Source: Candidatus Limnocylindrales bacterium
Lineage (GTDB): Bacteria; Chloroflexota; Dormibacteria; CF-121
NCBI GenBank assembly: GCA_035632635.1
Contig: DASQGL010000028.1
Coordinates: 5,578-69,577, forward strand
Length of the DNA: 64,000 nt
Direction: 5' to 3'
The stretch's first letter is position 1. Every line of letters begins with the position of its first letter. The position numbers were made by a program, and so were the translations under genes. The notes beneath the pieces are model-generated. The model did not search any database. It was not told the DNA's origin and saw nothing but the letters and a program-made list of their open reading frames with translations. This document shows positions 30,384 through 49,483 of this stretch, piece by piece.

Positions 30384-31178
30384 CTAGCGGACGCCGGACG
30401 CGACGCCGGCCGGTTTGCGCGCCCGGATGTAGGCGCTGGCGATCTTGCCCTCGGCTGCGTCAAGCCCAGCATCGGTTGGGGCGAACGTGTGGGTGAGCTC
30501 GATGTCGATCCCCTCGAAACCGGCTGCCTCCACGGCAGCCCGGTACTCGTCGACGCGGATCGTCCCCGCGACGCACCCGGCCCAGGCGTCGAGCGACGCC
30601 TTCATACCGGCCGGCAGTGGCTCCACCTCCACCATGTCCGAGACCGCGAACCGTCCGCCCGGCTTGAGCACGCGGAACGCTTCGCGCAGCACGGCGCCCT
30701 TGTCGGCGGCCAGGTTGATGACGCAGTTGGAGATCACGACGTCGACCGCCGCGTCGGCGAGCGGGATGGCTTCCATCGTCCCTTTGAGGAAGGTCGCGTT
30801 CTGAACGCCGGACCGGGCCTGGTTCGCCCGGGCCAGCTCGAGCATCTCGTCCGTCATGTCCAGGCCGTAGGCATGGCCGCCCGGGCTGACCCGGCGGGCC
30901 GAGAGGAGCACGTCGAGGCCAGCCCCGCTGCCCAGGTCCAGCACGACCTCTCCTGCGTGCAGCTGTGCCAGCGCCGTTGGATTGCCGCAGCCCAGGCTGG
31001 CCCCGAGGCTCAATCCAAGGTCGGCAACCTCCGTCTTCGAGTAGGCCTCTTGGCCGATCGGCCCTGAGACGGCATCACTGCCCCCAGCGCAGCTCGCGTC
31101 GCAGCAGCTACCACTGCCGTTGAGTTCGATCGCCAGCTTCGCATACTTCTCGCGCACGGCGTCAGTGATGGGCTCCAT
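30384..31178 (-). CDS. arsM: Arsenite S-adenosylmethionine methyltransferase (ArsM-like)
   Basis: N-terminal Cys cluster ([10 protein letters not shown]), class I MT motif VLDLGSGAG, and conserved downstream Cys (ISNCVINL). Confidence 0.7.
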
Positions 31179-31234
31179 GGCCCCACCCTACACATTCCAT
31201 AGACAAACGTCAATGGGTTTGGTAGAGTCGAAGC

Positions 31235-31576
31235 GTGGCCGCGACAGGCATCCCCGAGCGGGCCAAAGGCGTCTGCTGCCCGCCGGCGCCGGCGCTGCCC
31301 GAGCGGCAGGTCGGTGCCACGGTCGAGGTCCTGAAGGCGCTCGCCGACCCGACGCGCCTGCAGATGGTCGGCATGCTGAAACGCGCCACCGCCCCGGTAT
31401 GCATCTGCGACTTCACCGCCGCGTTCGACTTGAGCCAACCCACGATCTCTCACCACATGAGCAAATTGCGCGAAGCCGGCCTGGTCGACGTCAGCCGCCG
31501 CGGCATCTGGGCCTACTACCGCCTGAATCCCCGGCTCGCCGAACCGGTGCGGGCCCTCCTCGACCTCGTCGGCTGA
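31235..31576 (+). CDS. arsR: ArsR/SmtB-family metalloregulatory repressor
   Basis: GTG start; HTH ALADPTRLQMVGML; Cys motifs VCC near the N-terminus and CICDF. Confidence 0.75.
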   Translation: MAATGIPERAKGVCCPPAPALPERQVGATVEVLKALADPTRLQMVGMLKRATAPVCICDFTAAFDLSQPTISHHMSKLREAGLVDVSRRGIWAYYRLNPRLAEPVRALLDLVG

Positions 31577-31578
31577 CC

Positions 31579-31971
31579 ATGGCGAACGTGCTGTTCGTCT
31601 GCCTGCACAACGCCGGCCGCTCGCAGATGAGCCAGGCGCTGTTCGAGCGAGCGGTTCGCGGCCGGCATGAGGCGCGGTCTGCCGGGACCAGCCCGGGGGA
31701 ACGCGTACATCCCGCCGTGGTCACCGCGATGCGGGAGATCGGGATCGAGCTCGGCGATCGAACCCCCGCCCCGCTGACCGAGGAGCTCTCCCGCTGGGCG
31801 GACGTGGTGGTCACCATGGGCTGCGGCGACGCGTGTCCCTACATCGCCGGCAAGCGCTATATCGATTGGGATCTGCCCGACCCTGCCGGCCGTCCGCTCG
31901 AAGACGTGCGTCGGACTCGGGACGAAATCGACCGGCGGGTTGGGGCGCTGGCGAGAGAACTCGACCGCTGA
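31579..31971 (+). CDS. arsC: Arsenate reductase, low-molecular-weight phosphotyrosine-phosphatase family (ArsC)
   Basis: N-terminal FVCLHNAGRSQM P-loop (CX5R) and a downstream Cys pair (GCGDAC). The true start is the internal ATG at 31579, not the 31120 ORF-track start. Confidence 0.8.
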   Translation: MANVLFVCLHNAGRSQMSQALFERAVRGRHEARSAGTSPGERVHPAVVTAMREIGIELGDRTPAPLTEELSRWADVVVTMGCGDACPYIAGKRYIDWDLPDPAGRPLEDVRRTRDEIDRRVGALARELDR

Positions 31972-31985
31972 CCACCCGCCCGGCG

Positions 31986-32680
31986 TGATAGAAGAGGGTG
32001 TGGCCCAGAACTGGCAGGACCCCGGCTTCGCCGAGCAATGGGACGCACGTCACCTGACCGGAAACCCGGCGCGGGCGGAGCACCTGGCGCTCCTGCGGGA
32101 GATGCTCATCGACGTGCCCCCGGGCGACGTGCTGGACCTGGGCTGCGGATCAGGGCTGGTCGCCCTGATGATCCTGCAGACCTTGCCGCAGGCCAGGCTG
32201 TTCGGGATCGACTGGTCGCCTCCCATGCTCGACCTGGCCCGCGAACGCCTGCACGGATTGGGCTCGCGCTTTCACCTGGCGGAGGGGGACCTGCGCCGGC
32301 TGGCCGAGGTGATCGCGCCCTCGGCGTGCTCGGCCGCCGTCGCGGTGCAATCCCTCCACCACCTCACGCAAGCCGAATACCGCGCCGCGGCAGGCTGGAC
32401 CTTTGAACATCTCGCCCCAGGGGCGTGGTTCGTGATCATCGATCGCCTGGCGATCCCGTCCGAGCGGCTATACACGCCGTTTCGGAGAACGCGGGCGCGA
32501 CAGGGTCAGGCGCCGAATCCGGAGCGGTGGTCCGACTACCTCGACTGGCTGGAGGCGAACGGGGACCGTCCGCTTGCCGTTCAGCAGATCCTGCCCATCC
32601 TCGAGGAGGCCGGCTTCATGGCGGCCTGCCTGGATGTCCGCGCCGATCGGGGCATGCTCGTCGCCCGCCGCCCGGGATGA
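31986..32680 (+). CDS. Class I SAM-dependent methyltransferase
   Basis: VLDLGCGSG motif; GTG start just after the arsC stop. Confidence 0.55.
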
Positions 32681-33507
32681 GGGCGAAGGAGCTCTTCCCC
32701 GACGTCTTCTCGCGGCACGCCCGCGCCTACAAGCGGCGCCAGGATGCGCTGCGCCGCCAGGGCGGCCTGCGCGCACGGACACTCCTGATCGAGGGGATCG
32801 GGGCCGGACCAGGCGACCAGGTGCTCGACCTGGCGTGCGGCCCGGGAACGCTGACCCTGCAGCTGGCGGAGCTCGTCGCACCGGATGGACAGGCGGTCGG
32901 TATCGACCTCGCGCCGGGAATGCTCGAGGTCGCGCAAGCCTCGGCGCCGGCCGGCCTCCCGGTGCGCTTCGAGCTGATGGACATCGAGGATCTGCGCTTT
33001 CCCGACGCGAGTTTCGATGCTGCCACCTGCGCGCATGGTCTCCAGTTCTGTGCCGACCTCGACCGCGCGCTCGGTCAGGCGCGGCGGGTCCTGCGCTCCG
33101 AGGCGCGGTTCGGGGCGACCGTGCCGCTCGATCGGTCGAGCAGCGTCGGCGAGGCGATCGTCTCGCGGATCGCCGGCGACCGCCTCCCGCCGGGACCGGA
33201 AACGCCCGATCGCGACCGGACCAGAGCCATCGTGAGTGATGCGAACGCCTTCCGCCTCCACGTCGAGATGGCCGGCTTTCGCAATGTCCGCGTGCAGCGT
33301 GTCCGGGAAAGCCACCGATGGGAGAACCCGGCCGAGCTGATCGACATGGCTTCGAGCTGGTGGGTGCTGGCCGAGCGGCTCGAGCAGCTCAGCCAACCGG
33401 ATCGGGAGGCTCTGCTGACTCTCGCGCGTCAGACGCTCGAAGCCCAGTACGGTGCCGGGCCGATCGAGTCCCACAGCACGTCCAGTCTTCTGTTCGCCGA
33501 CGTCTGA
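32677..33507 (+). CDS. Class I SAM-dependent methyltransferase (UbiE/COQ5-like)
   Basis: VLDLACGPG motif; the internal ATG at 32677 overlaps the upstream stop (ATGA). Confidence 0.6.
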   Translation: MRAKELFPDVFSRHARAYKRRQDALRRQGGLRARTLLIEGIGAGPGDQVLDLACGPGTLTLQLAELVAPDGQAVGIDLAPGMLEVAQASAPAGLPVRFELMDIEDLRFPDASFDAATCAHGLQFCADLDRALGQARRVLRSEARFGATVPLDRSSSVGEAIVSRIAGDRLPPGPETPDRDRTRAIVSDANAFRLHVEMAGFRNVRVQRVRESHRWENPAELIDMASSWWVLAERLEQLSQPDREALLTLARQTLEAQYGAGPIESHSTSSLLFADV

Positions 33508-33523
33508 CTCCGGGACGCCGCGG

Positions 33524-33715
33524 TTACCAGAGCTCGCCGTTCGCGAGCGCCATGTAGAGGATGGGGCCGATGCCCCAGAAGAAGCAGACCACGCCCCAGA
33601 GCAGTTTCTGCAGCCCGGTCAGATCCCGGCGTCCGGCAAGGTTGATCAGGGCCAGGACGAAGGCGATCGGGTGCAGGAAGATCGCGAGCAGCACCTCGAG
33701 GACAACCTTGCACAT
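33524..33715 (-). CDS. Small membrane protein of the PLD-nuclease N-terminal domain (PLDc_N) family
   Basis: 63 aa and two TM helices, with LLWGVVCFFWGIGPILYM matching the PLDc_N small-protein family pattern. Confidence 0.5.
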   Translation of the reverse strand: MCKVVLEVLLAIFLHPIAFVLALINLAGRRDLTGLQKLLWGVVCFFWGIGPILYMALANGELW

Positions 33716-33729
33716 GTGGAGACCGCTAT

Positions 33730-34476
33730 TTAATCATCGCGGCTCGCGATCGCCAGGATCCGCGTGCTGGACGCAAGGACCGGGCTCCCGTCCCAGTCGC
33801 CGTAAAGATCGATCCGGTTGAAGCCGGCTTGGTGCAGCATCCCCTCCAGCTCGGCCGAGCCGTACAGCCGCAGCACGTGGGTGCGCTCCTGGAATTCGCC
33901 GCGCTGCTCCACCGTCTGACGGACCCGCATTCGCCGGCCGGAGGCGTCGAGCGTGCGTTCCTCGACCACCGCGATCTTGCCCACCGCGAACCACTCCCTG
34001 GGCTCGAAGTCCCGAACCCGCCAGTCCCCGTTCAGCACTTCGAGAACCAGGCGGCCCCCCGGAGCCAGCACGCTCGCAATCCCGTTCAGCACCGCCTGGT
34101 TGTCGGCATCGTCCTCGAAGTATCCGAGCGCGGTGAACAGGTTCAGGACCAGGTCGAAGGGACCACTCGGTGGCTGGCGCATGTCACCATGTACCCATCG
34201 AAGTGACAGCCGCTCGCTTCGGGCCCGCTCGGCCGCCACGCCGAGCAGGTAGTCGGAGAGGTCGAGGCCGGTGACCTGGTACCCGCGCCGAGCCAGCTCG
34301 ATCGCGTGACGACCCTGCCCGCAGGCCTCGTCGAGGACACGCGCCGGAGGGCGCACCCGGGCGAGTCGTTCGATTCCATCGACCTCGGCGGGCGTCCGGG
34401 CCCGGAGCGTCTCGTCATAGATCGCCAGGTAGGTTTCCCCGAACCAGGTCCGCCACCACTCCGGATCCGGTTTCAC
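33730..34476 (-). CDS. Class I SAM-dependent methyltransferase
   Basis: VLDEACGQGRH motif I and LAPGGRLVLE post-I/II region. Confidence 0.6.
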   Translation of the reverse strand: MKPDPEWWRTWFGETYLAIYDETLRARTPAEVDGIERLARVRPPARVLDEACGQGRHAIELARRGYQVTGLDLSDYLLGVAAERARSERLSLRWVHGDMRQPPSGPFDLVLNLFTALGYFEDDADNQAVLNGIASVLAPGGRLVLEVLNGDWRVRDFEPREWFAVGKIAVVEERTLDASGRRMRVRQTVEQRGEFQERTHVLRLYGSAELEGMLHQAGFNRIDLYGDWDGSPVLASSTRILAIASRDD

Positions 34477-34551: not shown

Positions 34552-37068
34552 GTGAGCGCAGCGCCTCATCAGGCGAACGTCGTCGTCATCGGAGCCGGCA
34601 TCGTCGGCAACAGCATGGCCTATCACCTTGCCCGGCTGGGATGGCGGGAGATCATCCTGATCGACAAGGGCCCCCTCCCCAACCCGGGCGGTTCGACCGG
34701 CCATGCCTCCAACTTCATCTTCCTGACCGATCATTCGAAGGAGATGACGCTCTTCACCCTCGACAGCGTCAAGCAGTACAAGGACCTGGGCGTCTTCACG
34801 CAGAGCGGGGGCATCGAGGTCGCCCGCACCCAGGAACGCATGGAGGAGCTGAAGCGCCGGATGGCGTCGAGCAGGTCGTGGGGGATCGAAGCCGAGCTGG
34901 TGACGCCCGCCCAGGTCAAGGAGCTGGTCCCATTCATCAACGAGGAGATCATCCTGGGAGGCTTTTCGACCCCCGGCATCGGAACCGTCGATTCGCTGCG
35001 TGGCGGCACCCTGATGCGCGAGAAGGCGCAGGCAATGGGCGCCCTCACCGTGATGCCGATGACCGAGGTCACGGGCATCGATATCGAGCGCGGGCGGATC
35101 GGTGGCGTCCGGACGACTCGGGGCACCATCACGACGAACACCGTGGTCGTCTGCTGCGGGATCTGGAGCCCCAGAATCGCGCGGATGGCGGGGGCGTCCA
35201 TCCCGCTCAGCCCGGCCGTGCACCAGATGATCAGCGTCGGCCCAGTCCCCCTCTTCAGCGACACGGTCGGCGAGATCAAGTACCCCATCATTCGGGACAT
35301 GGACACGAACGGCTACGAGCGGCAGCACGGGAGCGACATGGAAGTCGGCTCGTATGACCACCGTCCCATCCTCTGGGACCCGGACGACATCCCCTCGATC
35401 GAGCAGGCGAAGCTGTCTCCCACCGAGCTGCCCTTCACGAAAGCGGACTTCGACGAATCCCTGGAGCACGCGCTCGAACTGATGCCCGAAATCCTGGGCG
35501 ACCCCAAGATCGGCATCCGTCACGCCATCAACGGCCTTCTCTCGCTGACCCCGGACGGCCTCCCCATCCTGGGCGAGACCCCCGAGGTGAAAGGCCTCTG
35601 GTCGGCGGCGGCGATCTGGATCAAGGAGGCGCCCGGCATCGCGCGGGCGGTCGCCGAGTGGATGACGAGCGGCGTGTCCGAGATCGATCCCTCCGGGTCC
35701 GATATCGCCCGCTTCTACGACCATCAGAAGACGCAAGCGCACATCCAGGCGCGCTCCGCCGAAGGCTTCAACAAGACCTACGGCATCGTCCATCCGCGCG
35801 AGCAATGGGCCTCGAATCGCAACGTCCGCCTGAGCCCGTTCTACGAGCGTGAGAAGGCGCTCGGTGCGGTCTTCTTCGAAACCGCCGGCTGGGAACGGCC
35901 GAACTGGTACGAGTCGAACAAGCCGCTGCTCGAGGAGTACGGCGATCGGGTGATGCCGCGGCGATACGAGTGGGAGGCGCGCTGGTGGTCGCCCATCATC
36001 AATGCGGAGCACCTGGCGATGCGGGACCGGGTCGGCCTGGTCGATCTTTCAGCCTTCGCCGTCTTCGACGTGACCGGTCCCGGCGCCCTCGCCTACATGC
36101 AGAAGATGTGCGTCGTGCAGATCAACGTCCCGCCCGGGCGGGTCGTTTATACGTCGCTGCTCAACGAGGCGGGCGGAATCAAGGCTGACCTGACCGTGAT
36201 GCGCCTGGGCGACAGCCACTTCCGCGTGGTGACCGGCGGCATGGATGGGATGCGTGACAAGAAATGGTTCACGGATCACCTGCCGGAGGACGGTTCGGCC
36301 CAGCTGAGCGACCTGACCTCGAGTTGGGCCACGGTCGGCGTCTGGGGCCCGCGCGCTCGCGACCTGGTGCAGTCGGTGACCCGGGCGGACATGTCCAACG
36401 CCGGGTTCCCCTTCGCCACCTGCCGGGCCATCGAGATCGGCCCGGTCCGCGTGATCGCGTCGCGCATCTCGTACGTGGGAGAACTCGGCTGGGAGCTCTA
36501 TGTCCCCTTCGAGCAGGGCGCGCAGGTCTGGGATCGGCTGTGGGAGGCCGGCCAGCGCCACCGCGTCGCCCCGGTCGGCATCGGCGTCTACGCCACCACC
36601 GGGCGCCTCGAGAAGTGCTATCGCGCCTACGGGAACGAGCTCGAACAGGAATTCAACCTCGTCGAATGTGGCCTCGCCCGGCCGCAGGTCAAGAAGGACG
36701 AGTTCATCGGAAAGGAGGCCTACCTGAAACAGCGCGAGGAGCCTCCGGCGATCACGCTGTGCACGCTCACCGTCGATGACAACACCTCGCGGTCGGGATT
36801 CAAGCGCTACATGCAGGGCCGTGAGCCGGTGACGACGCGGAACGGCAAGCCGCTCGTGGACCGCCACGGCCGCCGTTCCTACCTGACCAGCGCTGGATCA
36901 GGGCCCTCGATCGGTAAGACGATCTTGATGAGCTATCTGCCGCCGGAGCAGGCGAAAGTGGGCACCAAGCTCTGCATCGAGTATTTCGGCGAAGAGTACC
37001 CGGCGACCGTCGCCATTGTCGGCCCGACCCCGATCTTCGATCCCGAGAACACCCGGGTGAAGAGCTGA
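34552..37068 (+). CDS. Dimethylglycine/sarcosine dehydrogenase-family flavoprotein (FAD DAO domain fused to a GcvT-like tetrahydrofolate-binding aminomethyltransferase domain)
   Basis: GTG start; N-terminal VVVIGAGIVGNSMAYHLA Rossmann motif; about 838 aa, with the C-terminal half resembling the glycine-cleavage T-protein fold. Confidence 0.75.
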   Translation: MSAAPHQANVVVIGAGIVGNSMAYHLARLGWREIILIDKGPLPNPGGSTGHASNFIFLTDHSKEMTLFTLDSVKQYKDLGVFTQSGGIEVARTQERMEELKRRMASSRSWGIEAELVTPAQVKELVPFINEEIILGGFSTPGIGTVDSLRGGTLMREKAQAMGALTVMPMTEVTGIDIERGRIGGVRTTRGTITTNTVVVCCGIWSPRIARMAGASIPLSPAVHQMISVGPVPLFSDTVGEIKYPIIRDMDTNGYERQHGSDMEVGSYDHRPILWDPDDIPSIEQAKLSPTELPFTKADFDESLEHALELMPEILGDPKIGIRHAINGLLSLTPDGLPILGETPEVKGLWSAAAIWIKEAPGIARAVAEWMTSGVSEIDPSGSDIARFYDHQKTQAHIQARSAEGFNKTYGIVHPREQWASNRNVRLSPFYEREKALGAVFFETAGWERPNWYESNKPLLEEYGDRVMPRRYEWEARWWSPIINAEHLAMRDRVGLVDLSAFAVFDVTGPGALAYMQKMCVVQINVPPGRVVYTSLLNEAGGIKADLTVMRLGDSHFRVVTGGMDGMRDKKWFTDHLPEDGSAQLSDLTSSWATVGVWGPRARDLVQSVTRADMSNAGFPFATCRAIEIGPVRVIASRISYVGELGWELYVPFEQGAQVWDRLWEAGQRHRVAPVGIGVYATTGRLEKCYRAYGNELEQEFNLVECGLARPQVKKDEFIGKEAYLKQREEPPAITLCTLTVDDNTSRSGFKRYMQGREPVTTRNGKPLVDRHGRRSYLTSAGSGPSIGKTILMSYLPPEQAKVGTKLCIEYFGEEYPATVAIVGPTPIFDPENTRVKS

Positions 37069-37081
37069 CGGCCGTGGCCAC

Positions 37082-37846
37082 ATGAACGTCCTGGTCTGCG
37101 TCAAGCGCGTTCCCGCGACCGGGGGCCACATCGCCTTGACGGCCGACGGCCAGGATATCGACACGCGCTACCTGGGCTTCACCATCAGCCCCCACGAGGA
37201 GTGCGCCGTCGAGGAGGCGGTCCGCCTTGCCGAAACGCATGGGGGGAGCAGCACCGTGCTGACCCTCGGTCCCGAGGTCGCCACCGAGCAACTGCGAGAC
37301 GCGATGGCGATCGGCATCGATCGCGCCATCCTCCTGGAGGCCGGCCAGGGCGAGTGGGACCCGATGGCCACAGCGAACGCCATCGTCGACGCGATCAGAT
37401 CGGAGCGGGCGGCCGGCCGGGAGTACGACCTCCTTCTGTTCGGGAACGAGTCGGCGGACAGCGCCGGCTACCAGGTCGGCATCCGGGTGGCGGAGGCGCT
37501 CGATCTGCCCTGTGTGACCGGGATCAAAGCGCTCGATGTCCAGGATGGGCTGGCCTCCGTTCGGCGCCAGACCGAGTCGGGGTGGGAGACCGCACAGGTC
37601 CGCATGCCGGCGGTCCTGACGGTCAAAGAAGGGATCAACCTGCCCCGGTATCCTTCGTTGCCGGGCCGGCTCAAGGCCAAGAAGAAGGACATCGAGCGGA
37701 TCCAGCCGCGACCGCAGGACGCCGGGCTCGAGAAGGTCCGTCTCAAGCTACCGGTGATGGCGGCGCACACGGTCGAGATCCTGGGCAGCGACGGCGACGC
37801 GGCGCCGCAGGTCGTCGAGGTCCTGCGCCGGTTGCGATTGGTCTGA
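37082..37846 (+). CDS. etfB: Electron transfer flavoprotein beta subunit
   Basis: MNVLVCVKRVP N-terminal signature of EtfB/FixA. Confidence 0.85.
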   Translation: MNVLVCVKRVPATGGHIALTADGQDIDTRYLGFTISPHEECAVEEAVRLAETHGGSSTVLTLGPEVATEQLRDAMAIGIDRAILLEAGQGEWDPMATANAIVDAIRSERAAGREYDLLLFGNESADSAGYQVGIRVAEALDLPCVTGIKALDVQDGLASVRRQTESGWETAQVRMPAVLTVKEGINLPRYPSLPGRLKAKKKDIERIQPRPQDAGLEKVRLKLPVMAAHTVEILGSDGDAAPQVVEVLRRLRLV

Positions 37847-37849
37847 GCG

Positions 37850-38821
37850 ATGGTGCTGGCCTTCATCGAACACGCCGGCGCAGCGCCCACCATGCTTTCG
37901 CTCGAACTGTTGACCGCCGCGCGGCGTCTGGCGCAGGCCATGGGTGAGCCGCTGGAGGCGGTTGCGATCGGGGCAGCGGGCGCCGCGGCCGGCATCCTCA
38001 CCTCCTACGGCGTCTCCACGCTGCACGTCGTCGAGGACGCGCGTCTGCAGGAATACGCGCCTGAGGCCTACGCCAGGACCGTGGTGGACCTCGTGGATCG
38101 CCTCCATCCGTCCGTCCTCATGGGCACCGGGAGCGATCGCGGCACGGAGGTCATGGCGCACGCGGCGGCACGCATGGCCATGCCGCTGGCGGCGAACTGC
38201 ACCGAGATCGTCCCGGGCGATCCGTTCCTCGTGACCCGCCAGCGCTGGGGGGGAAGCCTGCTGGAGGAGGCGCGGCTGAAAGGCGCCGTGAAGCTGCTGA
38301 CGCTCGCGCCGCACGCGACGACCGCCGAGACAGATCCTTCCCGCACCCAGGCCGAGGTGCGCGCCTTCAGCCCAACCCTCGAGGAGAAGGACTTCCGTGT
38401 CCGCGTCATCCCCCAGGCCGCCGCGGATGAAGGCAAGATCTCGCTCGCGCAGGCTCGGGTGGTCGTTGGCGGCGGTCGCGGAGTCGGAAGCGCGCAGGGG
38501 TTTCAGGCGCTCGAAGAGCTGGCCGGCCTGCTCGGCGGCACGGTCGGGTGCTCCCGGGCCGTGACCAGTCTCGGCTGGCGTCCCCACGCGGACCAGGTCG
38601 GGCAGACCGGGACGCGGATCGCCCCCGACCTCTACATCGCGTGCGGGATCAGCGGGGCGATCCAGCACATGGTCGGCTGCCGCGCCGCCAAGCACATCCT
38701 GGCCATCAACACGGACAAGGATGCCCCGATCGTCGCCCAGGCCGACTACGCGGTCATCGGCGACGTCCACGCCGTCGTCCAGGCGGTCACCTCCGAGGTC
38801 CGCAAGCTCAAGCACAGCTGA
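37850..38821 (+). CDS. etfA: Electron transfer flavoprotein alpha subunit
   Basis: C-terminal FAD-binding region (IAPDLYIACGISGAIQHMVG) typical of EtfA/FixB. Confidence 0.85.
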   Translation: MVLAFIEHAGAAPTMLSLELLTAARRLAQAMGEPLEAVAIGAAGAAAGILTSYGVSTLHVVEDARLQEYAPEAYARTVVDLVDRLHPSVLMGTGSDRGTEVMAHAAARMAMPLAANCTEIVPGDPFLVTRQRWGGSLLEEARLKGAVKLLTLAPHATTAETDPSRTQAEVRAFSPTLEEKDFRVRVIPQAAADEGKISLAQARVVVGGGRGVGSAQGFQALEELAGLLGGTVGCSRAVTSLGWRPHADQVGQTGTRIAPDLYIACGISGAIQHMVGCRAAKHILAINTDKDAPIVAQADYAVIGDVHAVVQAVTSEVRKLKHS

Positions 38822-38900
38822 CGACGGGCGATCGTGCCGGACCGCGACCCGCCCATTCCCTCGGGTTTAAGGCGCTGGCCGCGCGAGGTATACCCGTTGC

Positions 38901-39527
38901 ATGCCTCGCCATGGACCGGTCGAAAAGCGCTCCCGCCGCGCTGGAGTCGAGCTCTCGCTGAAGGGCGCCCGCCTGCTTGCCGGCAAGAGCGGTCTGCGGC
39001 GGCGGCCACATCCCCCCGGCCCGCGGACAGCCACGCGTCGCCGCGCGACCGCCTCCGATCACCTGCGCCAGCTCCGTGAGAAGCAGAAGCTGCAGTGGTT
39101 CTACGGCGTCCGGGCCGGCCAGCTGCAGCGCTACTTCGACGCCAGCCGACGGGAGGCCGGATCCACCGGCGCCGCACTGCTGCGCCACCTGGAGCAGCGC
39201 CTGGACAACACCGTGTACCGGCTTGGACTGGCCGGCACCCGGGCCCAGGCGCGCCAGCTCGTCGGGCACGGACACGTGCAGGTCGATGGCACGCGTGTGG
39301 ACCGTCCCTCATATGCGGTCCGCCGCGGGGAGACCATCGCGATCCGGCCCGGCAGCTCCGTCGAACCGATCGTCCGGGACGCCCTCTCCCTGGGTTTCCA
39401 GGTACCGGCCTGGCTCAGCGTGGACCACGAGTCGCTGAGCGGGAAGGTGCTCCGGGACCCGGAACCGGCCGAGGTGAACGCGCCGGTCGACGTCGACCGC
39501 GTCGTCGAGTTCCTGACCCGGTACTGA
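38901..39527 (+). CDS. rpsD: 30S ribosomal protein S4
   Basis: KLQWFYGV...LDNTVYRLGLAGTRAQARQLVGHGHVQVDGTRVDRPSY matches the S4 domain. Confidence 0.85.
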   Translation: MPRHGPVEKRSRRAGVELSLKGARLLAGKSGLRRRPHPPGPRTATRRRATASDHLRQLREKQKLQWFYGVRAGQLQRYFDASRREAGSTGAALLRHLEQRLDNTVYRLGLAGTRAQARQLVGHGHVQVDGTRVDRPSYAVRRGETIAIRPGSSVEPIVRDALSLGFQVPAWLSVDHESLSGKVLRDPEPAEVNAPVDVDRVVEFLTRY

Positions 39528-39554
39528 GGAGCGGTCCTCCGCGGATCAGGAGAC

Positions 39555-39938
39555 TCAAGCCTTCGCGGACTTCAGCCAGGGGAGGGCGACGGCGAGCGGC
39601 CGCACCAGCAGCTGATACTGCTCCGGCTCCAGATGGCGGCGCGCCGTCACGCCGACCGCCGCGTCGCCCGCCGCCCGCCAGGCGGGCCCCTGGGCCCGGT
39701 CCTTGCTTCGCTCGGCGCCAGCGCTGAACACGGTCTGGAAGCGCTCCGGGCCCAGCTCATCCTGGGCGGCCCGCCGAGCAGCCTCGATCTGGGGGCCGTG
39801 GCTCAACTCCTGCCGCTCGTAGGTCCGTCCGATCAGACGCCAGGCCTCGTCGCCCAATCCGAGGATCCCCTGGTAGAAGCGGTCGACGACCGACCCGCCC
39901 GTGTCCCCCTCACCCTCGCGCGTCCAGGCCCGGGTCAT
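39555..39938 (-). CDS. Hypothetical protein
   Basis: 127-aa ORF with strongly GC3-biased codons and a protein-like composition; no family recognised. Confidence 0.35.
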   Translation of the reverse strand: MTRAWTREGEGDTGGSVVDRFYQGILGLGDEAWRLIGRTYERQELSHGPQIEAARRAAQDELGPERFQTVFSAGAERSKDRAQGPAWRAAGDAAVGVTARRHLEPEQYQLLVRPLAVALPWLKSAKA

Positions 39939-40031
39939 CCCTGCATGTTATCGCTCGATTCGGGCACTCAGGCGTCACCGGCATAACGTTCAAGCGCCCG
40001 TCGCCGTTCTGGATGCCGTGGTCGCCGCGAT

Positions 40032-40584
40032 GACGCATGCGCAACGCCGTCTGCCGGTTGCCGGATGGGCGCTGCTCGTCGCGGCCGTCACGCTCATCGC
40101 CGCGGTCGTGGAGATCGCGGGGCAACAGGCCATGCGGCAGGGCGCCGACCATCCTCAGGTCGAGATGGCGCGGCAGGCCGCCTCCCAGCTGAATGCCGGC
40201 GCGCGCCCAGCCGACGTCGTTGGAACCGGTCGGGCGGACATCGCGACCTCGCTGCAGCCGTGGTTGACGGTCACGGATCAGCACGGCGTGCCGCTCGCGT
40301 CATCCGGCGTCCTCGGAGGATTGCCGCCGATCCCGCCGTCAGGCGTCTTCGATTTCGTCCGGGCGCACGGTGAAGACCGGATCAGCTGGCAACCGGCTGC
40401 CGGGGTGCGCAGCGCGATCGCCATCGATTCCTACCGGGGCGGATTCATCGTGGCCGGCCGCTCGCTCCGCGTCGTCGAGGACGGGGAAAGCGCCTTGCTG
40501 GGCTGGGTCGTGATCTCCTGGATCGCCGCGATGGTGGTGCTGGGCGCGGGCGCGACCGTCCTTCAGCGTCGCCGCGCCGCCTGA
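40032..40584 (+). CDS. Hypothetical membrane-anchored protein (N- and C-terminal TM segments); start uncertain (40032 ATG vs 39901)
   Basis: Hydrophobic N-terminus (AGWALLVAAVTLIAAVV) and C-terminus (LLGWVVISWIAAMVVLGAG). Confidence 0.35.
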
Positions 40585-41711
40585 AAGCGATTCAGGCTGA
40601 ACAGGCTGATGTCGTGACGCGTCGACCCGTGCTCGACCAGGTCGGCCAGGATCTCGCCCACCACCGGGGCGAACTTGAACCCGTGGCCTGACAAACCGGC
40701 CGCAAACGCCACCTGCAGATGCTCCGGGTGCGCGCCGATGATGAAGTGCTCGTCCGGGCTGTTCTCGAACAGGCAGACCTTCATGGCCATCGTCGGACCG
40801 GCGGCGTCGGGGAAGTAGCGCTCGGTGAAGCTGCGCAGGATCGCCTCGTCGGCTTCATTCGGCTCACGGTCGACCCGATCGGGATCCACGCGCTGCTCGA
40901 GGTGGTGATAGCGGCCGACCTTGAAGCCCGGGACGCCGAAGACCGGCAGCCCGTAGTAGCGTCCGGCGGGGTCGTCGAACTGCCAGACCGGGCATCGCGT
41001 CCAGGCAAACAGCTCCGGGCGACGAGGCTGGAACCAGGCGACGACCTGGCGCTCGGCAGTCACGAGGCCCTGCAGGGCGTCGACCAGGTAGCCGGCCCAG
41101 GCGCCGGCCGTGACCACGAGCGCGGCGGCCTCGTACGACGCGTGAGCCGTGCGGACGTGGACCAGGTCTCCCCGCACTTCCCAGCCGACCACCGGCTCCC
41201 TCGCGTGGATCTCCGCGCCCTCCGCCTGCGCGCCCTCCACGTAGGCCACGATGCAGCGCTCCGGAAGAAGGAAGCCGGCCCGCGGCTGGACCAGCGCCAT
41301 GGTGTCAGCGGGGAACTGGAACCCTGGAAAACGGCGGCGCAGCTCCGCGCCGGTCAGGACCTCGTAGTCGAGGTCGTGCTCGTCCGCCGCGCGCCGCGCA
41401 TCCGCGAAGATCGTTCCGCCGGGTGGGCTGGCGTCGACGCACCCGGTCAGGTACAGCAACCGCTCACCGGCTCGCGCCTCCAGCTCTTCCCAGAGCTCGT
41501 AGGCGCGCCGCAGGAGCGGGACGTACGACGGGTGTTCAGAGTAGACGAGGCGGATGACGCGCGTGATGCCATGCGACGACCCCATCTCGTGGGGGATGTC
41601 GAACCGTTCCAGTCCCAGGACGCGCTTCCCTCGGCGCGCGAGGTGATAGGCGGTCGCGCTGCCCATCCCCCCGATTCCGACGATGATGACGTCGAACCGG
41701 CGCGGGCTCAG
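40563..41711 (-). CDS. Monomeric sarcosine oxidase / N-methyltryptophan oxidase (MSOX/MTOX) family flavoprotein; start codon non-canonical or disrupted
   Basis: C-terminal NSPDEHFIIGAHPEHLQVAFAAGLSGHGFKFAPVVGEILADL...FSLNRFQ is a close match to the SolA/MSOX family. The Rossmann motif RRFDVIIVGIGGMGS lies partly upstream of the first ATG at 41666. Confidence 0.7.
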   Translation of the reverse strand: MSPRRFDVIIVGIGGMGSATAYHLARRGKRVLGLERFDIPHEMGSSHGITRVIRLVYSEHPSYVPLLRRAYELWEELEARAGERLLYLTGCVDASPPGGTIFADARRAADEHDLDYEVLTGAELRRRFPGFQFPADTMALVQPRAGFLLPERCIVAYVEGAQAEGAEIHAREPVVGWEVRGDLVHVRTAHASYEAAALVVTAGAWAGYLVDALQGLVTAERQVVAWFQPRRPELFAWTRCPVWQFDDPAGRYYGLPVFGVPGFKVGRYHHLEQRVDPDRVDREPNEADEAILRSFTERYFPDAAGPTMAMKVCLFENSPDEHFIIGAHPEHLQVAFAAGLSGHGFKFAPVVGEILADLVEHGSTRHDISLFSLNRFQAARRR

Positions 41712-41982
41712 GGGTTCAGGATCTTGGAGCGGGGATTCGCGTCATCAAGCTCCTTGACGACCGCCTCGGCAACGTCGGCTGGGGTGCCCGGCCGCTCCTG
41801 TTCCTCGCTCCATTTCCAGCCGTCGAGGTAGGCGTCCATGTCGGTCGAGCCGTCCTTCATCGCGTAGGCATCGATGGCAGCCATGAAGCGGTCCGGCAGC
41901 ATGCGCTTGACCTCCGCCTGCCCGTCCCAGGCCTTCACCTGGGAGGGAATGTGTTTCCAGTACATGACCTGGTACCGCGCCA
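41708..41982 (-). CDS. Small hypothetical protein; the N-terminal extent is uncertain because the longest ORF (to 42133) collides with the MFS N-terminus
   Basis: Core sequence MYWKHIPSQVKAWDGQAEVKRMLPDRFMAAIDAYAMKDGSTDMDAYLDGWKWSEEQERP is protein-like; no family recognised. Confidence 0.3.
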
Positions 41983-42036
41983 CATCAGCATGGTAACCGC
42001 CGTACAATCGACCCGTGACCTGACGAGGCCGTCCCC

Positions 42037-43244
42037 GCCGACTCCTGAACACGGTCGCCATCCTCCTCGCGATCGAGCTTCTCGATGAGCTGGTCGACGG
42101 GGTCAAGGGAGCGGCGCTGCCGCTGATTCGCACGGACCTGCACCTCTCCTATGCGGAGATCGGCCTCTTGCTCTCGGCGCCGATCATCCTCGGCAACCTG
42201 GTCGAAGCCCCACTGGGAATCCTCGCCGATCGCGGGTGGCGGCGAAGGCTGATCCTCACGGGGGGCGCCCTGTTCGTGCTCTCCCTTGCCACGATTGCGG
42301 GCGCGCAGGCGTTCTGGATGCTGCTGGGTGGCTTCGTCCTCTTCTACCCGGCCAGCGGCGCCTTCGTGTCGCTGGCGCAGGCCAGTCTGATGGACCTGGA
42401 CCCGGCCCGGCACGAAGCCAACATGGCCCGCTGGAATTTCGTCGGGGCGCTCGGCGCGGTGACCGGTTCGCTGCTGATCGCCGGCGCGATCACCCTTCAC
42501 GCGAGCTGGCGATTCGGCTTCGCGCTGCTGGCCGGCGCCGGGCTGGCCTGCGTGCTGGAGGCCGCCCGCGTGCCCCAGCTGAGCGGGACGCCGGAGGGCG
42601 TCGGCGAGAGCCTGCGCGACAGCGTGGTCGCCGCGCTGGCGGCGCTGCGCCGGCTCGCGGTCGTGCGCTGGCTGCTGTTACTGGAGGCCGCCGACCTGAT
42701 GCTCGACGTCTTCACCGGATTCCTGGCGGTCTTCCTGGTCGACGTCGGGCACCTGTCGCCGGTGGTGGCCGCCGTCGCCGTCGGCATCCGCCTGGGCGCC
42801 GATCTGCTGGGCGGCTTGCTGGTCATCCCGCTCGTAGAACAGGTCCCGGGCAGCGTCTATCTGCGCATCAGCGCCGGTCTCATGCTCGTCCTCTATCCGG
42901 CGTTCCTGCTCACACCCTGGCTGCCGGCGCGGCTCACCATCCTGGCGCTCCTCTCACTGTGCACCGCCGGATGGTATCCGGTGTTGAAGGCCGCCGTGTT
43001 CTCGGCGATGCCCGGCCGCAGCGGCACGGTGATGTCGATCGAAGACGTGGTCGCCATGCTCGGCGGCCTCGTGCCCGCCGCACTCGGACTGATCGCCACT
43101 TCAGCCGGACTCGCCGCCGCGATGTGGCTTCTGCTGCTCAGCCCGATGCTGCTGCTTGTCGGGACGGTTGCTCGGCGACGAGAGACGTCAGGCGGTCCTC
43201 GAGCTCTCCCAGGCCCACCCAGCGAATCTCGAGGGGAAGCTTGA
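42037..43244 (+). CDS. MFS transporter; the ORF track starts at TTG 42168, but the in-frame upstream 43 codons encode TM1 and MFS motif A
   Basis: LLNTVAILLAIELLDELVDG (TM1) and GILADRGWRRRLIL (motif A G-x3-D-R-x-G-R-R) lie upstream of the first ATG/GTG/TTG in frame. Confidence 0.55.
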
Positions 43245-43752
43245 GCGTGGCCGCGATCTTGCGAGCGCGATCGATCAGCCGGGCGTTGGGGAACTGACAG
43301 AGATAGATCAGGTTCGTGTAGTTGCCGAAATACACGGCCTGCAGCTCCGGAAAGCGGTCGAGGCCGAGCCCGCGCGAGACGGCCCGGTCGAAGTTGCGCA
43401 CCAGCCAATCGGTCAGGAAGAACGTCGCCGGCTGGTTCTCCGCGAGCCGCTCGAACTCCCGGGCCCCAGCGAACATCTCATAGCAGTGCGGACCCTTCAG
43501 GCAGACCGCGCCGTAACGCGCGAGCACGGGGTCGAGGGCTCCCGCCGTGCCGCAATCGCCGTAGACGACGATGACCCGCTCGTATCGTGGCGCGATGGTG
43601 TCCAGCTTGCGCTCGATCGCCTCGACGATCTTCTTCGGATAGAAGTGGTGCAGGGCGGGAATACCGTAGATGTCGACGTCCCATCCGCGCGCGTCGACGA
43701 GCGTCTTGACCTCCCTGCCCAGCGCCCCGCAGATGATCAGCGCCGTTCTCAC
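43138..43752 (-). CDS. DUF1638-domain protein (family found almost exclusively next to corrinoid-protein/methyltransferase genes)
   Basis: MRTALIICGALGREV...VVYGDCGT pattern. It is translationally coupled to the RACo gene upstream (4-nt overlap). Confidence 0.55.
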   Translation of the reverse strand: MRTALIICGALGREVKTLVDARGWDVDIYGIPALHHFYPKKIVEAIERKLDTIAPRYERVIVVYGDCGTAGALDPVLARYGAVCLKGPHCYEMFAGAREFERLAENQPATFFLTDWLVRNFDRAVSRGLGLDRFPELQAVYFGNYTNLIYLCQFPNARLIDRARKIAATLKLPLEIRWVGLGELEDRLTSLVAEQPSRQAAASG

Positions 43753-45572
43753 AGCGTGTCGAGCTCCGGAAATTGCAGCACCGAGATGAACGAGTCGTTG
43801 AAGTCGGCTCGGGCGGAGAGCTCGACGTACTCCACCTGCTCGGGAAGGTCGAAGGCAACCTGCCGCTCGCGGAAGGAGAGCAGTGTCATCTTCGCGCCCT
43901 CGCCAGCGGTGTTGCCAACCGAGAGGATCCGGTCGACCGGCACCGGGGGCACGAGACCGATGATCCTCGCGCTCTCCGGATTCAGATAGGAGCCGAACGA
44001 GCCGCCCAAGAGCACTTCATCGAGATCCCCGGCACTGACCCCGAGTTCGTCCATGAGCACCTTGATGCCGCCCGCAATCGACCCCTTGCCAAACTGCAAT
44101 TCGCGGACGTCCTTCTGGCTCAGGTAGACGCTATCGGCGAGCAGGAAGGCGCGCACGCCGTCGACCGTGATCAGCCGATCGGAGAGTGGGTGCTCGGGGA
44201 CCTCCTCGCGGCTCCGCATCCGGCCGGACGCATCGAGCAGGCCGCACAGCCGCAACTGCGCGATCGCGTCCACGAGTCCCGACCCGCAGATACCTCTTGC
44301 GGGGACGTCGCCGCCGATGATCTGGAGCTCGACGCGATCGCCGAGCGTGACCCCCTCGATGGCACCCTCGGTGGCCCGCATCCCGCACTTGATCTGGCTG
44401 CCTTCGAAGGCGGGGCCCGCCGGGGCGGCGGTGGCCAGGATCCGTCGCGACGACCCGAGCACGATCTCACCGTTGGTGCCCACGTCGACGAAGACGCGCA
44501 GCTTCTCTTCGCGGCCCAGCCCGGTCGCGATCACGCCCGCCACGATGTCCGCGCCGACGTAGGCGCCGATCAGCGGAAGGGTCTGAACCTTGCCGTTCGG
44601 ATGGATCTCCAGCCCGGCATCCCGGGCGTCCACGTAGAGGGCGCCGTGGAAGGCCGGAGTGAACGGCACCATCGAGATCGGGGTCGGATCGATGCCCAGC
44701 AACAGGTGCAGCATGGTCGCGTTTCCAACCACGACCGCCTCGTAAACCCGATCCCGTGCGACGCCGGACTCGGAGAACAGCTCGCTCAGGATGCCGTTCA
44801 TGCTGGTCCGGATCGCCGCTTGCAGCTCGCCAAGCGCCTCCGGCCCCAGCATGGCGTGGCTGATGCGGGAGATCACGTCCGCGCCGAAGGGCGCCTGGCC
44901 GTTGAGCGTCGACCGCACGGCTTCCGCCATCCCGGTGCGGAGGTTCATCAAGGTCCCGACCACGGTCGTCGTGCCGACATCGAACGCGACCCCGTAGCAG
45001 GCATCACGCGTGTCCCCGCCTTCTACGGCGATCAGCTGGTCCCCACCCAGGACCGCGGTCACCCTGAAGTCAGATGCGCGGAGCGTCGCCGGCAGCCGGG
45101 CCAGGACGGCGACGTTCCCCTTCATGTCGAAGCCCTCAGCGGTCAGCGCGTCCTGCAGGCGCTCGATGTCGCCTCGTTGGTCGGCGAGCGTCGGCTCCTG
45201 CAGCTCCACGTACACCTTGCGCACGTTCGGATCCAGCAACACCAGCCGGTTCACGCCCATGGTCGCCGCCTTGGGCACCCGCTGCAGCTCGGGCACCAGG
45301 CAGACCGTGTCCTGATAGACCTTCGATTGGCAGCTGAGCCGCCAGCCGGCCGCGATCTCGGACTCCCGCAGCTCCTTGCGGTCGGCCGTGGTGACGTCCA
45401 GGCCGCCATCCAGCACCTGGACCTTGCACTTGCCGCAGGTCCCCCGGCCACCGCAGGTCGAGTCGATCGGGAGGCCGATCCAGTGCGCCGCACTGAAGAG
45501 GGTGGTCCCCGGCGGGACCCGCGTCACCCGGTCGTACGGCTTGTAGGTGACCTCGAGCTTCTTGGCGATCAT
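43749..45572 (-). CDS. RACo-type reductive activator of corrinoid proteins (N-terminal plant-type [2Fe-2S] ferredoxin domain followed by an ASKHA ATPase domain)
   Basis: CGGRGTCGKCKV...C ferredoxin motif, then a long ASKHA-fold region (FDVGTTTVVG, DVGTNGEIV) and about 600 aa total length. Confidence 0.7.
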   Translation of the reverse strand: MIAKKLEVTYKPYDRVTRVPPGTTLFSAAHWIGLPIDSTCGGRGTCGKCKVQVLDGGLDVTTADRKELRESEIAAGWRLSCQSKVYQDTVCLVPELQRVPKAATMGVNRLVLLDPNVRKVYVELQEPTLADQRGDIERLQDALTAEGFDMKGNVAVLARLPATLRASDFRVTAVLGGDQLIAVEGGDTRDACYGVAFDVGTTTVVGTLMNLRTGMAEAVRSTLNGQAPFGADVISRISHAMLGPEALGELQAAIRTSMNGILSELFSESGVARDRVYEAVVVGNATMLHLLLGIDPTPISMVPFTPAFHGALYVDARDAGLEIHPNGKVQTLPLIGAYVGADIVAGVIATGLGREEKLRVFVDVGTNGEIVLGSSRRILATAAPAGPAFEGSQIKCGMRATEGAIEGVTLGDRVELQIIGGDVPARGICGSGLVDAIAQLRLCGLLDASGRMRSREEVPEHPLSDRLITVDGVRAFLLADSVYLSQKDVRELQFGKGSIAGGIKVLMDELGVSAGDLDEVLLGGSFGSYLNPESARIIGLVPPVPVDRILSVGNTAGEGAKMTLLSFRERQVAFDLPEQVEYVELSARADFNDSFISVLQFPELDTL

Positions 45573-47412: not shown

Positions 47413-47783
47413 ATCCGATCGCCGTCCCAGCCGGCCGGCCGGCGATGGTCGCGCCCGCTGACGAGATTGATCCAGGAGGAGGTGCCCTTCAGCCGCCAGT
47501 CCACGGGCGGGTTGAGATGCTGCATGTGGTCGCGCCACAGCGGGAGGCGCCGTGATCCCTCATACGCCTTCACCCAGACGCAGGGCCGGTCGGGAAACAC
47601 CTCGCAGTTCCCGTTGGCGCGAACGCCGCCGCAAGGCCCGTTGCGCAGGTTCTTGGGACAGCGCATCGGGCAGGTCAACCCGGTCGAGTGCAGGATGCAT
47701 TGGCCGCACATCCGGCAGTCCCAGATGGCCTCCTTGAGCGGTTTCTCGAGCGCGATCACGGCCTGTTCGAGGAGAGTGCCCAT
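47409..47783 (-). CDS. metV: MetV-like zinc-ribbon protein (MTHFR C-terminal-like domain, small partner subunit of MetF in acetogen-type systems)
   Basis: Cys-rich CRMCGQCILHSTGLTCPMRCPKNLRNGPCGG pattern, located immediately upstream of and coupled to metF. Confidence 0.6.
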   Translation of the reverse strand: MGTLLEQAVIALEKPLKEAIWDCRMCGQCILHSTGLTCPMRCPKNLRNGPCGGVRANGNCEVFPDRPCVWVKAYEGSRRLPLWRDHMQHLNPPVDWRLKGTSSWINLVSGRDHRRPAGWDGDRM

Positions 47784-49313: not shown

Positions 49314-49425
49314 AGCACAACAGTCTACGCTCCCGGTCGGCGGATGGAAAGGGGTCGCGCGCGACGCCCGCGGAGGCTGCTTCGGGCGGCATCCCGGGGT
49401 CCGCGGCGGCCCTTGACGGTGGCGT

Positions 49426-49472: not shown

Positions 49473-49483
49473 GGAGGGAAGCC

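Follow-up and report, generated by a model that had tools for sequence, protein, structure and literature searches.

Glycine betaine is among the most abundant osmolytes and a labile source of nitrogen and carbon in soils and waters, and to our knowledge its consumption by aerobes outside the Proteobacteria is poorly mapped. In the aerobic Ruegeria pomeroyi, betaine is demethylated by MtgB, MtgC and MtgD, cobalamin is reactivated by RamA together with a DUF1638 protein, and methyl-tetrahydrofolate (methyl-THF) is oxidised by MetF2; genes for the later demethylations are co-located with MtgBCD and MetF2 in aerobic Proteobacteria (Mausz et al. 2025, PMC12478193). Genes of the mttB/mtgB type were also reported for Limnocylindria in a floodplain study of metagenome-assembled genomes (MAGs), in which the later steps were not analysed (PMC11264602). 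Here, a stretch of 64,000 nucleotides from a Candidatus Limnocylindrales bacterium (freshwater/soil Chloroflexota; assembly GCA_035632635.1, contig DASQGL010000028.1, positions 5,578 to 69,577; hereafter the window) was analysed, which carries genes for a flavoprotein of the dimethylglycine oxidase (DMGO)/dimethylglycine dehydrogenase (DMGDH) superfamily, for the two subunits of an electron transfer flavoprotein (ETF) as well as for a corrinoid-dependent methyltransferase system. The region probably encodes the later, oxidative half of a catabolic island for choline and glycine betaine.

The characterised enzymes for comparison with the flavoprotein are DMGO of Arthrobacter globiformis (EC 1.5.3.10; PDB entries 1PJ5/1PJ6) and the mammalian DMGDH and sarcosine dehydrogenase (SARDH; 5L46/4PAA). 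Reoxidation by O2 is more than 300 times faster in DMGO than in human DMGDH, and flavin-proximal gatekeeper residues have been proposed, namely Pro/Val in the oxidase and Ala/Ile in the dehydrogenase, given there without residue numbers (Augustin et al., PMC5082570). With regard to electron transfer, FixAB-type EtfBA of mycobacteria works as an ordinary ETF, and EtfD is the membrane oxidoreductase (Beites et al. 2021, PMC8593149).

Analysis of the window and the locus sample

Genes were called in the window (G+C content about 68%) by third-position GC (GC3) and checked with Pfam and NCBIfam. Operon boundaries in the window were judged from gene spacing and strand only. The gene for the flavoprotein with DAO and GcvT domains together with etfB and etfA is referred to as the trio. 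For comparison, one genome per species was scanned, which resulted in 80 flavoprotein loci with 52-83% identity from Chloroflexota, many Actinomycetota, haloarchaea, Acidobacteriota and Bacteroidota; individual loci are designated by L numbers. The adjacency of etfBA was scored in the 69 of the 80 loci that have at least 1.9 kb of downstream flank, and full flanks were available in 40. Neighbour families were obtained by unbiased clustering of open reading frames (ORFs) over the 80 loci and subsequent annotation with Pfam.

A clade of flavoproteins with a dedicated ETF

The original prediction had placed four genes in this part of the window, encoding a DMGDH-like flavoprotein, EtfB, EtfA and an oxidase of the monomeric sarcosine oxidase (MSOX)/N-methyltryptophan oxidase (MTOX) family. 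All four were found at the predicted positions (Table 1), the last on the minus strand, and the domain search returned DAO, FAO_M, GCV_T and GCV_T_C for the first, ETF subunits for the next two and the MSOX/MTOX family for the fourth. The flavoprotein ORF comprises 838 aa with a GC3 of 0.88, and its four domains follow each other on one chain as in the DMGO/DMGDH/SARDH family: DAO (residues 10-370; 2.4e-54), FAO_M (374-428; 8.9e-16), GCV_T (430-709; 6.2e-75) and GCV_T_C (758-821; 1.3e-9). The best full-length match among solved structures was Arthrobacter globiformis DMGO (1PJ5, 582 bits), which has 38-41% identity and a similar length (838 vs 830 aa), followed at a greater distance by mammalian DMGDH (about 320 bits). 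The catalytic residues of DMGO are present. His51 corresponds to DMGO His48, the site of the covalent 8-alpha-FAD (flavin adenine dinucleotide) linkage, which is His91 in human DMGDH; His224 and Tyr255 correspond to the His225/Tyr259 dyad, and Asp546 to Asp552 of the folate site. His51, His224 and Asp546 are kept in 80/80 relatives and Tyr255 in 79/80.

The segment around the covalent histidine sets the protein apart from both characterised types: it reads GHASNFI in the window protein vs SHAPGLV in DMGO and WHAAGLT in DMGDH. The motif GHASNF(I/L) occurs in 80/80 relatives; relative to the oxidase, Pro is exchanged for Ser at the second position after the histidine (H+2), and Val for Ile at the fifth (H+5) in 75/80. 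These two positions may correspond to the gatekeepers proposed by Augustin et al. Members of the group are 52-64% identical to each other across phyla and domains, compared with 34-38% (BLAST) to DMGO. The window protein has a 100% match in a Candidatus Limnocylindrales MAG, and more than 120 clusters of homologs with 75-89% identity were found, predominantly in Chloroflexota metagenomes.

Directly downstream of the flavoprotein gene and on the same strand, etfB and etfA were found in 67 of the 69 informative loci, the exceptions being L028 and L086 (an Arthrobacter MAG). Among the cultured organisms with the trio are Nocardioides panacisoli (L068) and Brevibacterium sp. RIT 803 (L081). On contigs of closer homologs, from a Limnocylindria relative, Kouleothrix and Caldilineaceae, the trio was present in 3/3 and nothing else was common. 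On these sequence grounds the flavoprotein is assigned to a distinct orthologous clade, with a dedicated ETF as its hallmark, and is not a DMGDH orthologue. The label DMGDH-like is imprecise, since the closest characterised relative is the Arthrobacter oxidase and the protein belongs to a clade of its own; ETF-linked DMGO-family clade is the more fitting name. The identity to DMGO together with the betaine-catabolic neighbourhoods described below suggests that the enzyme would oxidise dimethylglycine (or sarcosine) with THF-dependent capture of the one-carbon (C1) unit. Architecture, covalent FAD, C1 capture by THF and, presumably, delivery of electrons to ETF are shared with the mammalian enzymes, which are ETF-dependent (PMC5082570).

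Conserved neighbourhoods of the trio

Several gene families recur around the trio. IclR regulators were found in 27/80 loci, aldehyde dehydrogenases in 21/80, GMC oxidoreductases of the choline dehydrogenase type in 18/80, ABC permeases in 17/80, and OpuAC betaine-binding proteins, ABC ATPases and GntR/FCD regulators in 15/80 each, the latter often directly upstream of the MttB or the flavoprotein gene. Methylenetetrahydrofolate reductase (MTHFR), MttB, B12-binding protein, RACo and DUF1638 were each present in 12/80 loci; GcvT-only, CCG/4Fe-4S and metallophosphoesterase-like proteins in 10/80 each; formyltetrahydrofolate synthetase (FTHFS) in 8/80; and AA_permease in 7/80. One neighbour cluster without Pfam annotation (cluster 5, 20 loci) was discarded as an artefact of ORFs antisense to etfA.

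Genes of the corrinoid system (homologs of MttB, RACo or MtgA) lie within 10 kb of the flavoprotein gene in 20/80 loci and in 14 of the 40 with full flanks. In some genomes the genes form operons on a single strand. The operon of L075 consists of genes for B12-binding protein, DUF1638, PF13769, MtgA-like protein, RACo, MttB, flavoprotein, EtfB and EtfA, that of L037 of GntR, MttB, flavoprotein, EtfB, EtfA, PF13769 and RACo, and that of L018 of GntR, Metallophos, AA_permease, GbsB-like protein, Aldedh, c23, flavoprotein, EtfB, EtfA and an EtfD-like protein. The window holds the families of these operons in a rearranged form, with GntR, Metallophos, AA_permease, GbsB, MttB and c23 in a plus-strand block and IclR, MtgC-like protein, MTHFR, MtgA-like protein, RACo and DUF1638 in a minus-strand block. 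The recurrent neighbours and the single-strand operons thus provide strong genomic evidence that the flavoprotein-ETF module would act in choline/betaine catabolism, downstream of an MttB-family methyltransferase. This bears out the link between flavoprotein and corrinoid island that had been drawn from the window. The distance of 1.4 kb given for the island beyond the MSOX-like gene also holds, once the DUF1638 gene is counted as its first member.

The arrangement as one catabolic supra-operon did not hold, since both strands are used and rpsD interrupts. The window contains separate units, namely flavoprotein-etfBA (plus strand), rpsD (plus), the MSOX-like gene (minus), the corrinoid genes (minus) and the MttB block (plus).

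The metallophosphoesterase-like, AA_permease and NTP_transf_5-like (c23) genes of the window (50227-52873 and 55512-56396) recur as a set of three beside flavoprotein-etfBA in several phyla, including L018, L026, L044 and L048, and the first two share 60% and 58% identity with their counterparts in L018. Uptake and processing of choline or phosphocholine is one possibility for their role. The contig of L018 (258 kb), which carries a 68%-identical flavoprotein-etfBA-etfD operon, is attributed to a Candidatus Micrarchaeaceae archaeon (DPANN); its betaine genes are typical of Actinomycetota and Chloroflexota, and the contig is probably mis-binned.

The MSOX-like gene and the sarcosine step

The MSOX-like gene had been proposed to encode the enzyme for the last demethylation, from sarcosine to glycine. 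Its membership in the family was confirmed. The protein aligns end to end with MSOX of Bacillus (1EL5/1ZOV; 316 bits) and MTOX/SolA of Escherichia coli (2UZZ; 183 bits) and keeps the equivalents of Cys315 (covalent FAD), His45, Arg49, Arg52, Lys265, His269 and Lys348 (numbered as in 1EL5/1ZOV). In contrast to these enzymes the gene has an apparent CTG start, and the protein passes the cutoff of the NCBIfam equivalog for N-methyl-L-tryptophan oxidase (NF008425, 461 bits vs cutoff 257) and not that of TIGR01377 (308 vs 480). Proximity to the trio is kept in one close relative, the 86%-identity relative L001, where the MSOX-like gene, the small PF13769 gene upstream of it (20445-20726) and a gene of the major facilitator superfamily (MFS) remain about 6.8 kb from the trio.

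In the window, translation of the PF13769 gene and of the MSOX-like gene is coupled. The family is named Virulence_fact in Pfam; homologs were found inside the corrinoid/flavoprotein operons of L037 (14377-14688) and L075 (4902-5252), and the protein of about 92 aa seems to be an accessory of B12-dependent clusters for betaine demethylation that has so far gone unrecognised, and no virulence factor. The occurrence of PF13769 in these operons ties the MSOX-like gene to the pathway indirectly, and a role of the enzyme in the sarcosine step is plausible but weak.

Several observations count against that role. Among the 80 related loci, none contains an MSOX-like gene and soxBDAG is not recurrent either; homologs with 63-66% identity to the MSOX-like protein lie in unrelated gene contexts; and no ATG, GTG or TTG is present upstream of the GxGxxG motif in the MSOX-like frame. 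As far as the sampled loci indicate, only in this lineage is the gene associated with betaine genes. Since soxBDAG is not recurrent, both dimethylglycine and sarcosine may be substrates of the ETF-linked enzyme in most genomes. A stricter alternative is that the flavoprotein alone performs both later demethylations with ETF also in this genome and that the MSOX-like enzyme oxidises another N-methyl or cyclic amino acid, such as N-methyltryptophan or pipecolate. Most of the 80 loci, including L037 and L075, have a single flavoprotein for amine oxidation and lack MSOX and soxBDAG, and A. globiformis DMGO and human DMGDH oxidise sarcosine, if poorly (PMC5082570); the unrelated contexts of the homologs, the NCBIfam name and the non-canonical start point the same way. 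However, the gene is coupled to PF13769 and both remain close to the trio in L001, the protein is closer to Bacillus MSOX than to MTOX and keeps the carboxylate-binding Arg52 and Lys348, and in the other genomes genes for sarcosine oxidation could sit elsewhere. We regard this alternative as unlikely, though deserving real weight, and retain the MSOX-like oxidase as a possible additional enzyme for sarcosine.

At the start of the MSOX-like gene (41711), the CTG and the TGA that ends the upstream gene overlap (CTGA, 41708-41711), and L001 has GTGA at the corresponding place (20445-20448). The difference could reflect translational coupling under which a CTG start is tolerated, a recent loss of the start codon or an assembly error. 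One public gene call (P0121) begins at an internal ATG, and the resulting product of 367 aa lacks the FAD motif. Near the MSOX-like homolog of L004, a gene for a product of 838 aa suggested that flavoprotein and oxidase were linked a second time; it proved unrelated in BLASTP and Pfam.

The corrinoid island and the predicted first demethylation

All families of the MtgBCD pathway of R. pomeroyi and other marine Proteobacteria, i.e. MtgB, corrinoid protein, pterin-binding methyltransferase, RamA/RACo, DUF1638 and MetF2-type MTHFR, are represented in the window. The window differs in its phylum, Chloroflexota, with relatives also in Actinomycetota and haloarchaea, and in the later step, which is represented by a flavoprotein of the GHASNF clade with its dedicated EtfBA. 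A homocysteine-binding MtgE was not seen in the window.

The MttB-family protein scored about 470 bits to MtgB of D. hafniense (2QNE, 9YCE) vs about 143 bits to true trimethylamine methyltransferase. Its longest ORF shares about 120 nt with the end of the GbsB gene, and the alignment to MtgB begins at residue 39-42; the true start is probably near 54190. In MtgB, the betaine-binding residues Y97, R312, H348 and F356 have been defined by experiment, and the aromatic pair Y97/F356 discriminates quaternary amines (PMC13080624). The window protein keeps Y97, R312 and H348 and has Ala in place of F356, so that three of the four betaine residues are present, and it carries Trp at H348+4; this is a point against betaine. 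The resulting pattern H[AS]AGW is found in every trio-linked MttB homolog that keeps the Tyr, Arg and His, and is thus a clade feature, in which the Trp perhaps provides an alternative aromatic residue for the cation-pi contact. NCBIfam models of MtgC were matched below their cutoffs only.

Glycine betaine, the entry substrate named in the original prediction, is likely, because of the score to MtgB, the adjacent GbsB equivalog and the recurrent genes for betaine transporters and for choline and aldehyde dehydrogenases; it is the best-supported substrate of the first step. The corrinoid system and the flavoprotein could instead act on another quaternary amine (proline betaine, carnitine-derived betaines or choline), the flavoprotein demethylating the matching tertiary or secondary amine. 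Substrates of the MttB family are diverse and the Y97/F356 pair is discriminating (PMC13080624); F356 is replaced by Ala, with Trp four residues after H348 and four before this position, in the trio-linked homologs, the MtgC models were matched below cutoff, and the flavoprotein shares only 38-41% identity with DMGO. Nevertheless, bona fide MtgB proteins score best in the PDB, Y97, R312 and H348 are kept, and the adjacent GbsB equivalog and the recurrent OpuAC, GMC and aldehyde dehydrogenase genes all point to a choline-to-betaine route, which makes another amine improbable and betaine the substrate assumed here.

Two ORFs in the island were rejected. The 533-aa ORF first taken for MtgC (47791-49392, minus strand) is over-extended, its N-terminal 300 aa having no Pfam match, and hides the IclR gene. 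The 245-aa ORF at 49425-50162 (minus strand) is spurious and antisense to the GntR/FCD gene. Both were recognised with tblastn and Pfam.

Proposed electron transfer through EtfBA

Pfam PF01012 was found on both predicted ETF subunits and PF00766 on EtfA, and the two genes are adjacent. As had been expected from the window alone, an electron-accepting role of this ETF for the flavoprotein is well supported, because the gene order is conserved across the loci. Electrons from the mammalian enzymes go to the general mitochondrial ETF and ETF-QO; the ETF here is operon-encoded and its likely partner would be an EtfD-type Fe-S/CCG protein. A gene for a CCG/4Fe-4S protein follows etfA in nine loci, and the domain make-up of its product (4Fe-4S and two CCG domains) is that of mycobacterial EtfD. 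FixAB-like EtfBA is likewise common to both systems; the clients of the mycobacterial system are acyl-CoA dehydrogenases, whereas the client here would be an amine dehydrogenase.

A simple respiratory role is favoured for this EtfBA by analogy, because FixAB-type EtfBA works as an ordinary ETF together with EtfD in mycobacteria. It was weighed against a bifurcating or confurcating FixAB-type ETF that ties amine oxidation to NAD(H) or ferredoxin chemistry. The best PDB matches of EtfA are FixB/bifurcating-type proteins (CarE 182 bits, Thermotoga maritima EtfABCX 170, C. difficile 167, A. fermentans 146), which score above the canonical EtfA of Paracoccus (126) and human (118), and the top NCBIfam matches of both subunits are FixA/FixB-like families, all under cutoff. 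However, all structure matches of EtfB lie near 90 bits and do not discriminate between subtypes, an EtfD-like gene follows etfA in the nine loci mentioned, the mycobacterial precedent is of the FixAB type (PMC8593149), and the flavin potential of DMGDH, -93 mV (PMC5082570), creates no obvious need for bifurcation. Bifurcation is very improbable, and a respiratory role is assumed in what follows. That the flavoprotein is an O2-using dimethylglycine oxidase like its top-scoring characterised relative (1PJ5), with etfBA serving unrelated dehydrogenases, hardly agrees with the adjacency of etfBA across several phyla and two domains, where no other neighbour is universally conserved, or with the invariant GHASNF in place of SHAPGLV, read through the inferred gatekeeper positions, and is extremely unlikely.

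Proposed pathway and its significance

The first methyl group of betaine would be removed as methyl-THF by the MtgB-like, MtgC-like and MtgA-like proteins with the help of RACo and the DUF1638 protein, and methyl-THF would be oxidised by the MetF2-like MTHFR. The dimethylglycine formed would then be oxidised by the 838-aa enzyme, whose covalent FAD would take two electrons from the N-methyl group, and the iminium or formaldehyde equivalent would be transferred to THF in the GcvT-like domain to yield 5,10-methylene-THF. The reduced flavin would be re-oxidised by the dedicated EtfBA and not by O2, and EtfBA would feed the respiratory chain, in many relatives by way of an EtfD-like Fe-S/CCG oxidoreductase. 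Sarcosine may be a further substrate of the 838-aa enzyme. The MSOX/MTOX-family oxidase, presumably co-transcribed with the small accessory protein of corrinoid clusters, would be a plausible extra route from sarcosine to glycine in this lineage. Gene content, domain architecture, catalytic residues and neighbourhoods were observed directly; from them we infer the substrates, ETF as the acceptor and co-regulation of the modules.

Other results weigh against this pathway. In the literature, no paper was found in which an ETF-linked enzyme of the GHASNF clade is characterised, the closest characterised relative being an oxidase with the low identity given above, and the choice between dimethylglycine, sarcosine and another N-methyl amino acid cannot be read from the sequence. 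The modules lie on different strands with rpsD between them, the promoter scan of the window gave no matches, and terminator-like matches were intragenic only. Within the 64 kb, no gene for an aldehyde dehydrogenase, EtfD or FTHFS was found.

A plasmid of Halorientalis marina (L084, 9866-19884) encodes a GHASNF-type DAO-GcvT protein and EtfBA, followed by two paralogs of the HAPG type that resemble Arthrobacter DMGO. Labour may be divided among such paralogs, so the substrate of the clade may differ from the one proposed, which also speaks against the pathway. The operon would be a natural system for dissecting substrate specificity and the differences between oxidase and dehydrogenase.

The occurrence of three different demethylases in one island, which had been put forward as a notable design, is already known, because it was described by Mausz et al. 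(2025, PMC12478193) for later demethylation genes co-located with MtgBCD and MetF2. The flavoprotein-EtfBA module, conserved in choline/betaine neighbourhoods of Limnocylindria, many Actinomycetota and haloarchaea and frequently joined to the B12-dependent MtgB system, extends this picture of an aerobic MtgBCD pathway beyond marine Proteobacteria. The trio is also a clean marker for annotating dimethylglycine/sarcosine oxidation in metagenomes, where its genes are now named just FAD-dependent oxidoreductase or GcvT family protein. No new kind of chemistry or system is revealed, and most interest attaches to the GHASNF clade, which is uncharacterised and has an EtfBA (and EtfD) dedicated to it. 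Tentatively, and with somewhat less confidence than for the assignment of the region, these widespread orthologues may have evolved as obligate partners of the FixAB-type EtfBA encoded with them, in many cases together with an EtfD-type quinone reductase. They would then be the missing dimethylglycine/sarcosine dehydrogenase for full mineralisation of betaine in Terrabacteria and haloarchaea, downstream of B12-dependent (MtgB) or other first steps, and the changes from Pro to Ser and Val to Ile would represent the natural oxidase-to-dehydrogenase switch that has been suggested for the family.

Gene arrangement and flanking genes

Table 1. Predicted genes of the catabolic region and genes lying between its modules, in order of position in the window
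Feature	Positions	Strand	Evidence and remarks
FAD and folate (GcvT-domain) N-methylglycine dehydrogenase, predicted; ETF-linked GHASNF clade of the DMGO/DMGDH superfamily	34552-37068	+	Pfam, structure matches, conserved residues
etfB (ETF beta subunit)	37082-37846	+	Pfam ETF 2.1e-33; 13 nt past the flavoprotein gene
etfA (ETF alpha subunit)	37850-38821	+	Pfam ETF and ETF_alpha; 3 nt past etfB
rpsD (ribosomal protein S4), housekeeping, outside the pathway	38901-39527	+	Pfam Ribosomal_S4 and S4; absent at the L001 position
Conserved predicted membrane protein, convergent with the MSOX-like gene	39901-40584	+	67% to L001:18761-19324, same place; no Pfam; start probably near 40060
MSOX/MTOX-family flavoprotein, apparent CTG start	40563-41711	-	DAO 1.3e-48; NF008425
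Small protein with PF13769 (Virulence_fact); translational coupling with the MSOX-like gene	41708-41986	-	Pfam PF13769 2.9e-20
MFS transporter	42168-43244	+	Pfam MFS_1; same arrangement in L001
DUF1638 protein, putative corrinoid reactivation accessory; first island gene on this side	43138-43752	-	Pfam DUF1638 4.4e-26; 12 loci
RACo-type reductive activase of corrinoid proteins	43749-45572	-	Pfam Fer2, RACo_linker, Raco_middle and RACo_C_ter
Methyl-corrinoid:tetrahydrofolate methyltransferase (MtgA/MtgD-like)	45569-46441	-	Pfam Pterin_bind; NF005719 301 bits vs cutoff 259
MTHFR (MetF2-like), expected to convert methyl-THF to methylene-THF	46441-47538	-	Pfam MTHFR 1.1e-30; analogy to MetF2 (PMC12478193)
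MtgC-like corrinoid (B12-binding) protein	47791-48510	-	B12-binding_2 and B12-binding on the 239-aa version
IclR-family regulator	48504-49313	-	Pfam HTH_IclR and IclR_C
GntR/FCD regulator heading the plus-strand choline/betaine operon	~49521-50201	+	Pfam GntR and FCD
Metallophosphoesterase-like protein	50227-51159	+	Pfam; cluster 18, 10 loci
AA_permease transporter	51218-52873	+	Pfam; cluster 21, 7 loci
GbsB-type (Fe-ADH) choline dehydrogenase	52945-54192	+	NF053866 equivalog 583 bits vs cutoff 550
Non-pyrrolysine MttB-family methyltransferase, MtgB-like (putative glycine betaine:corrinoid)	54071-55633	+	Pfam MTTB 1.2e-196

The coordinates of the genes discussed above are given in Table 1. Upstream of the trio, a gene for a 7TM-HD receptor-type phosphohydrolase (27046-29265, minus strand) and the region before the flavoprotein gene are syntenic with L001 (1987-4206). 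The interval from etfA to the MSOX-like gene differs between the two, with rpsD in the window and other genes in L001.

Four genes for S-adenosylmethionine (SAM)-dependent methyltransferases lie upstream of the flavoprotein gene (30384-34476), one of the ArsM type (NF008823, 300 bits vs cutoff 263), and in L001 and L003, too, the trio has methyltransferase genes on its flanks. The SAM methyltransferases (30.4-34.5 kb) were considered as glycine/sarcosine N-methyltransferases and rejected, with NCBIfam scores far under the cutoff and one being ArsM. Unrelated genes in the window encode a LigD primase-polymerase domain (3454-4830, minus strand) and a multicopper oxidase/cupredoxin (5443-7071, plus strand).

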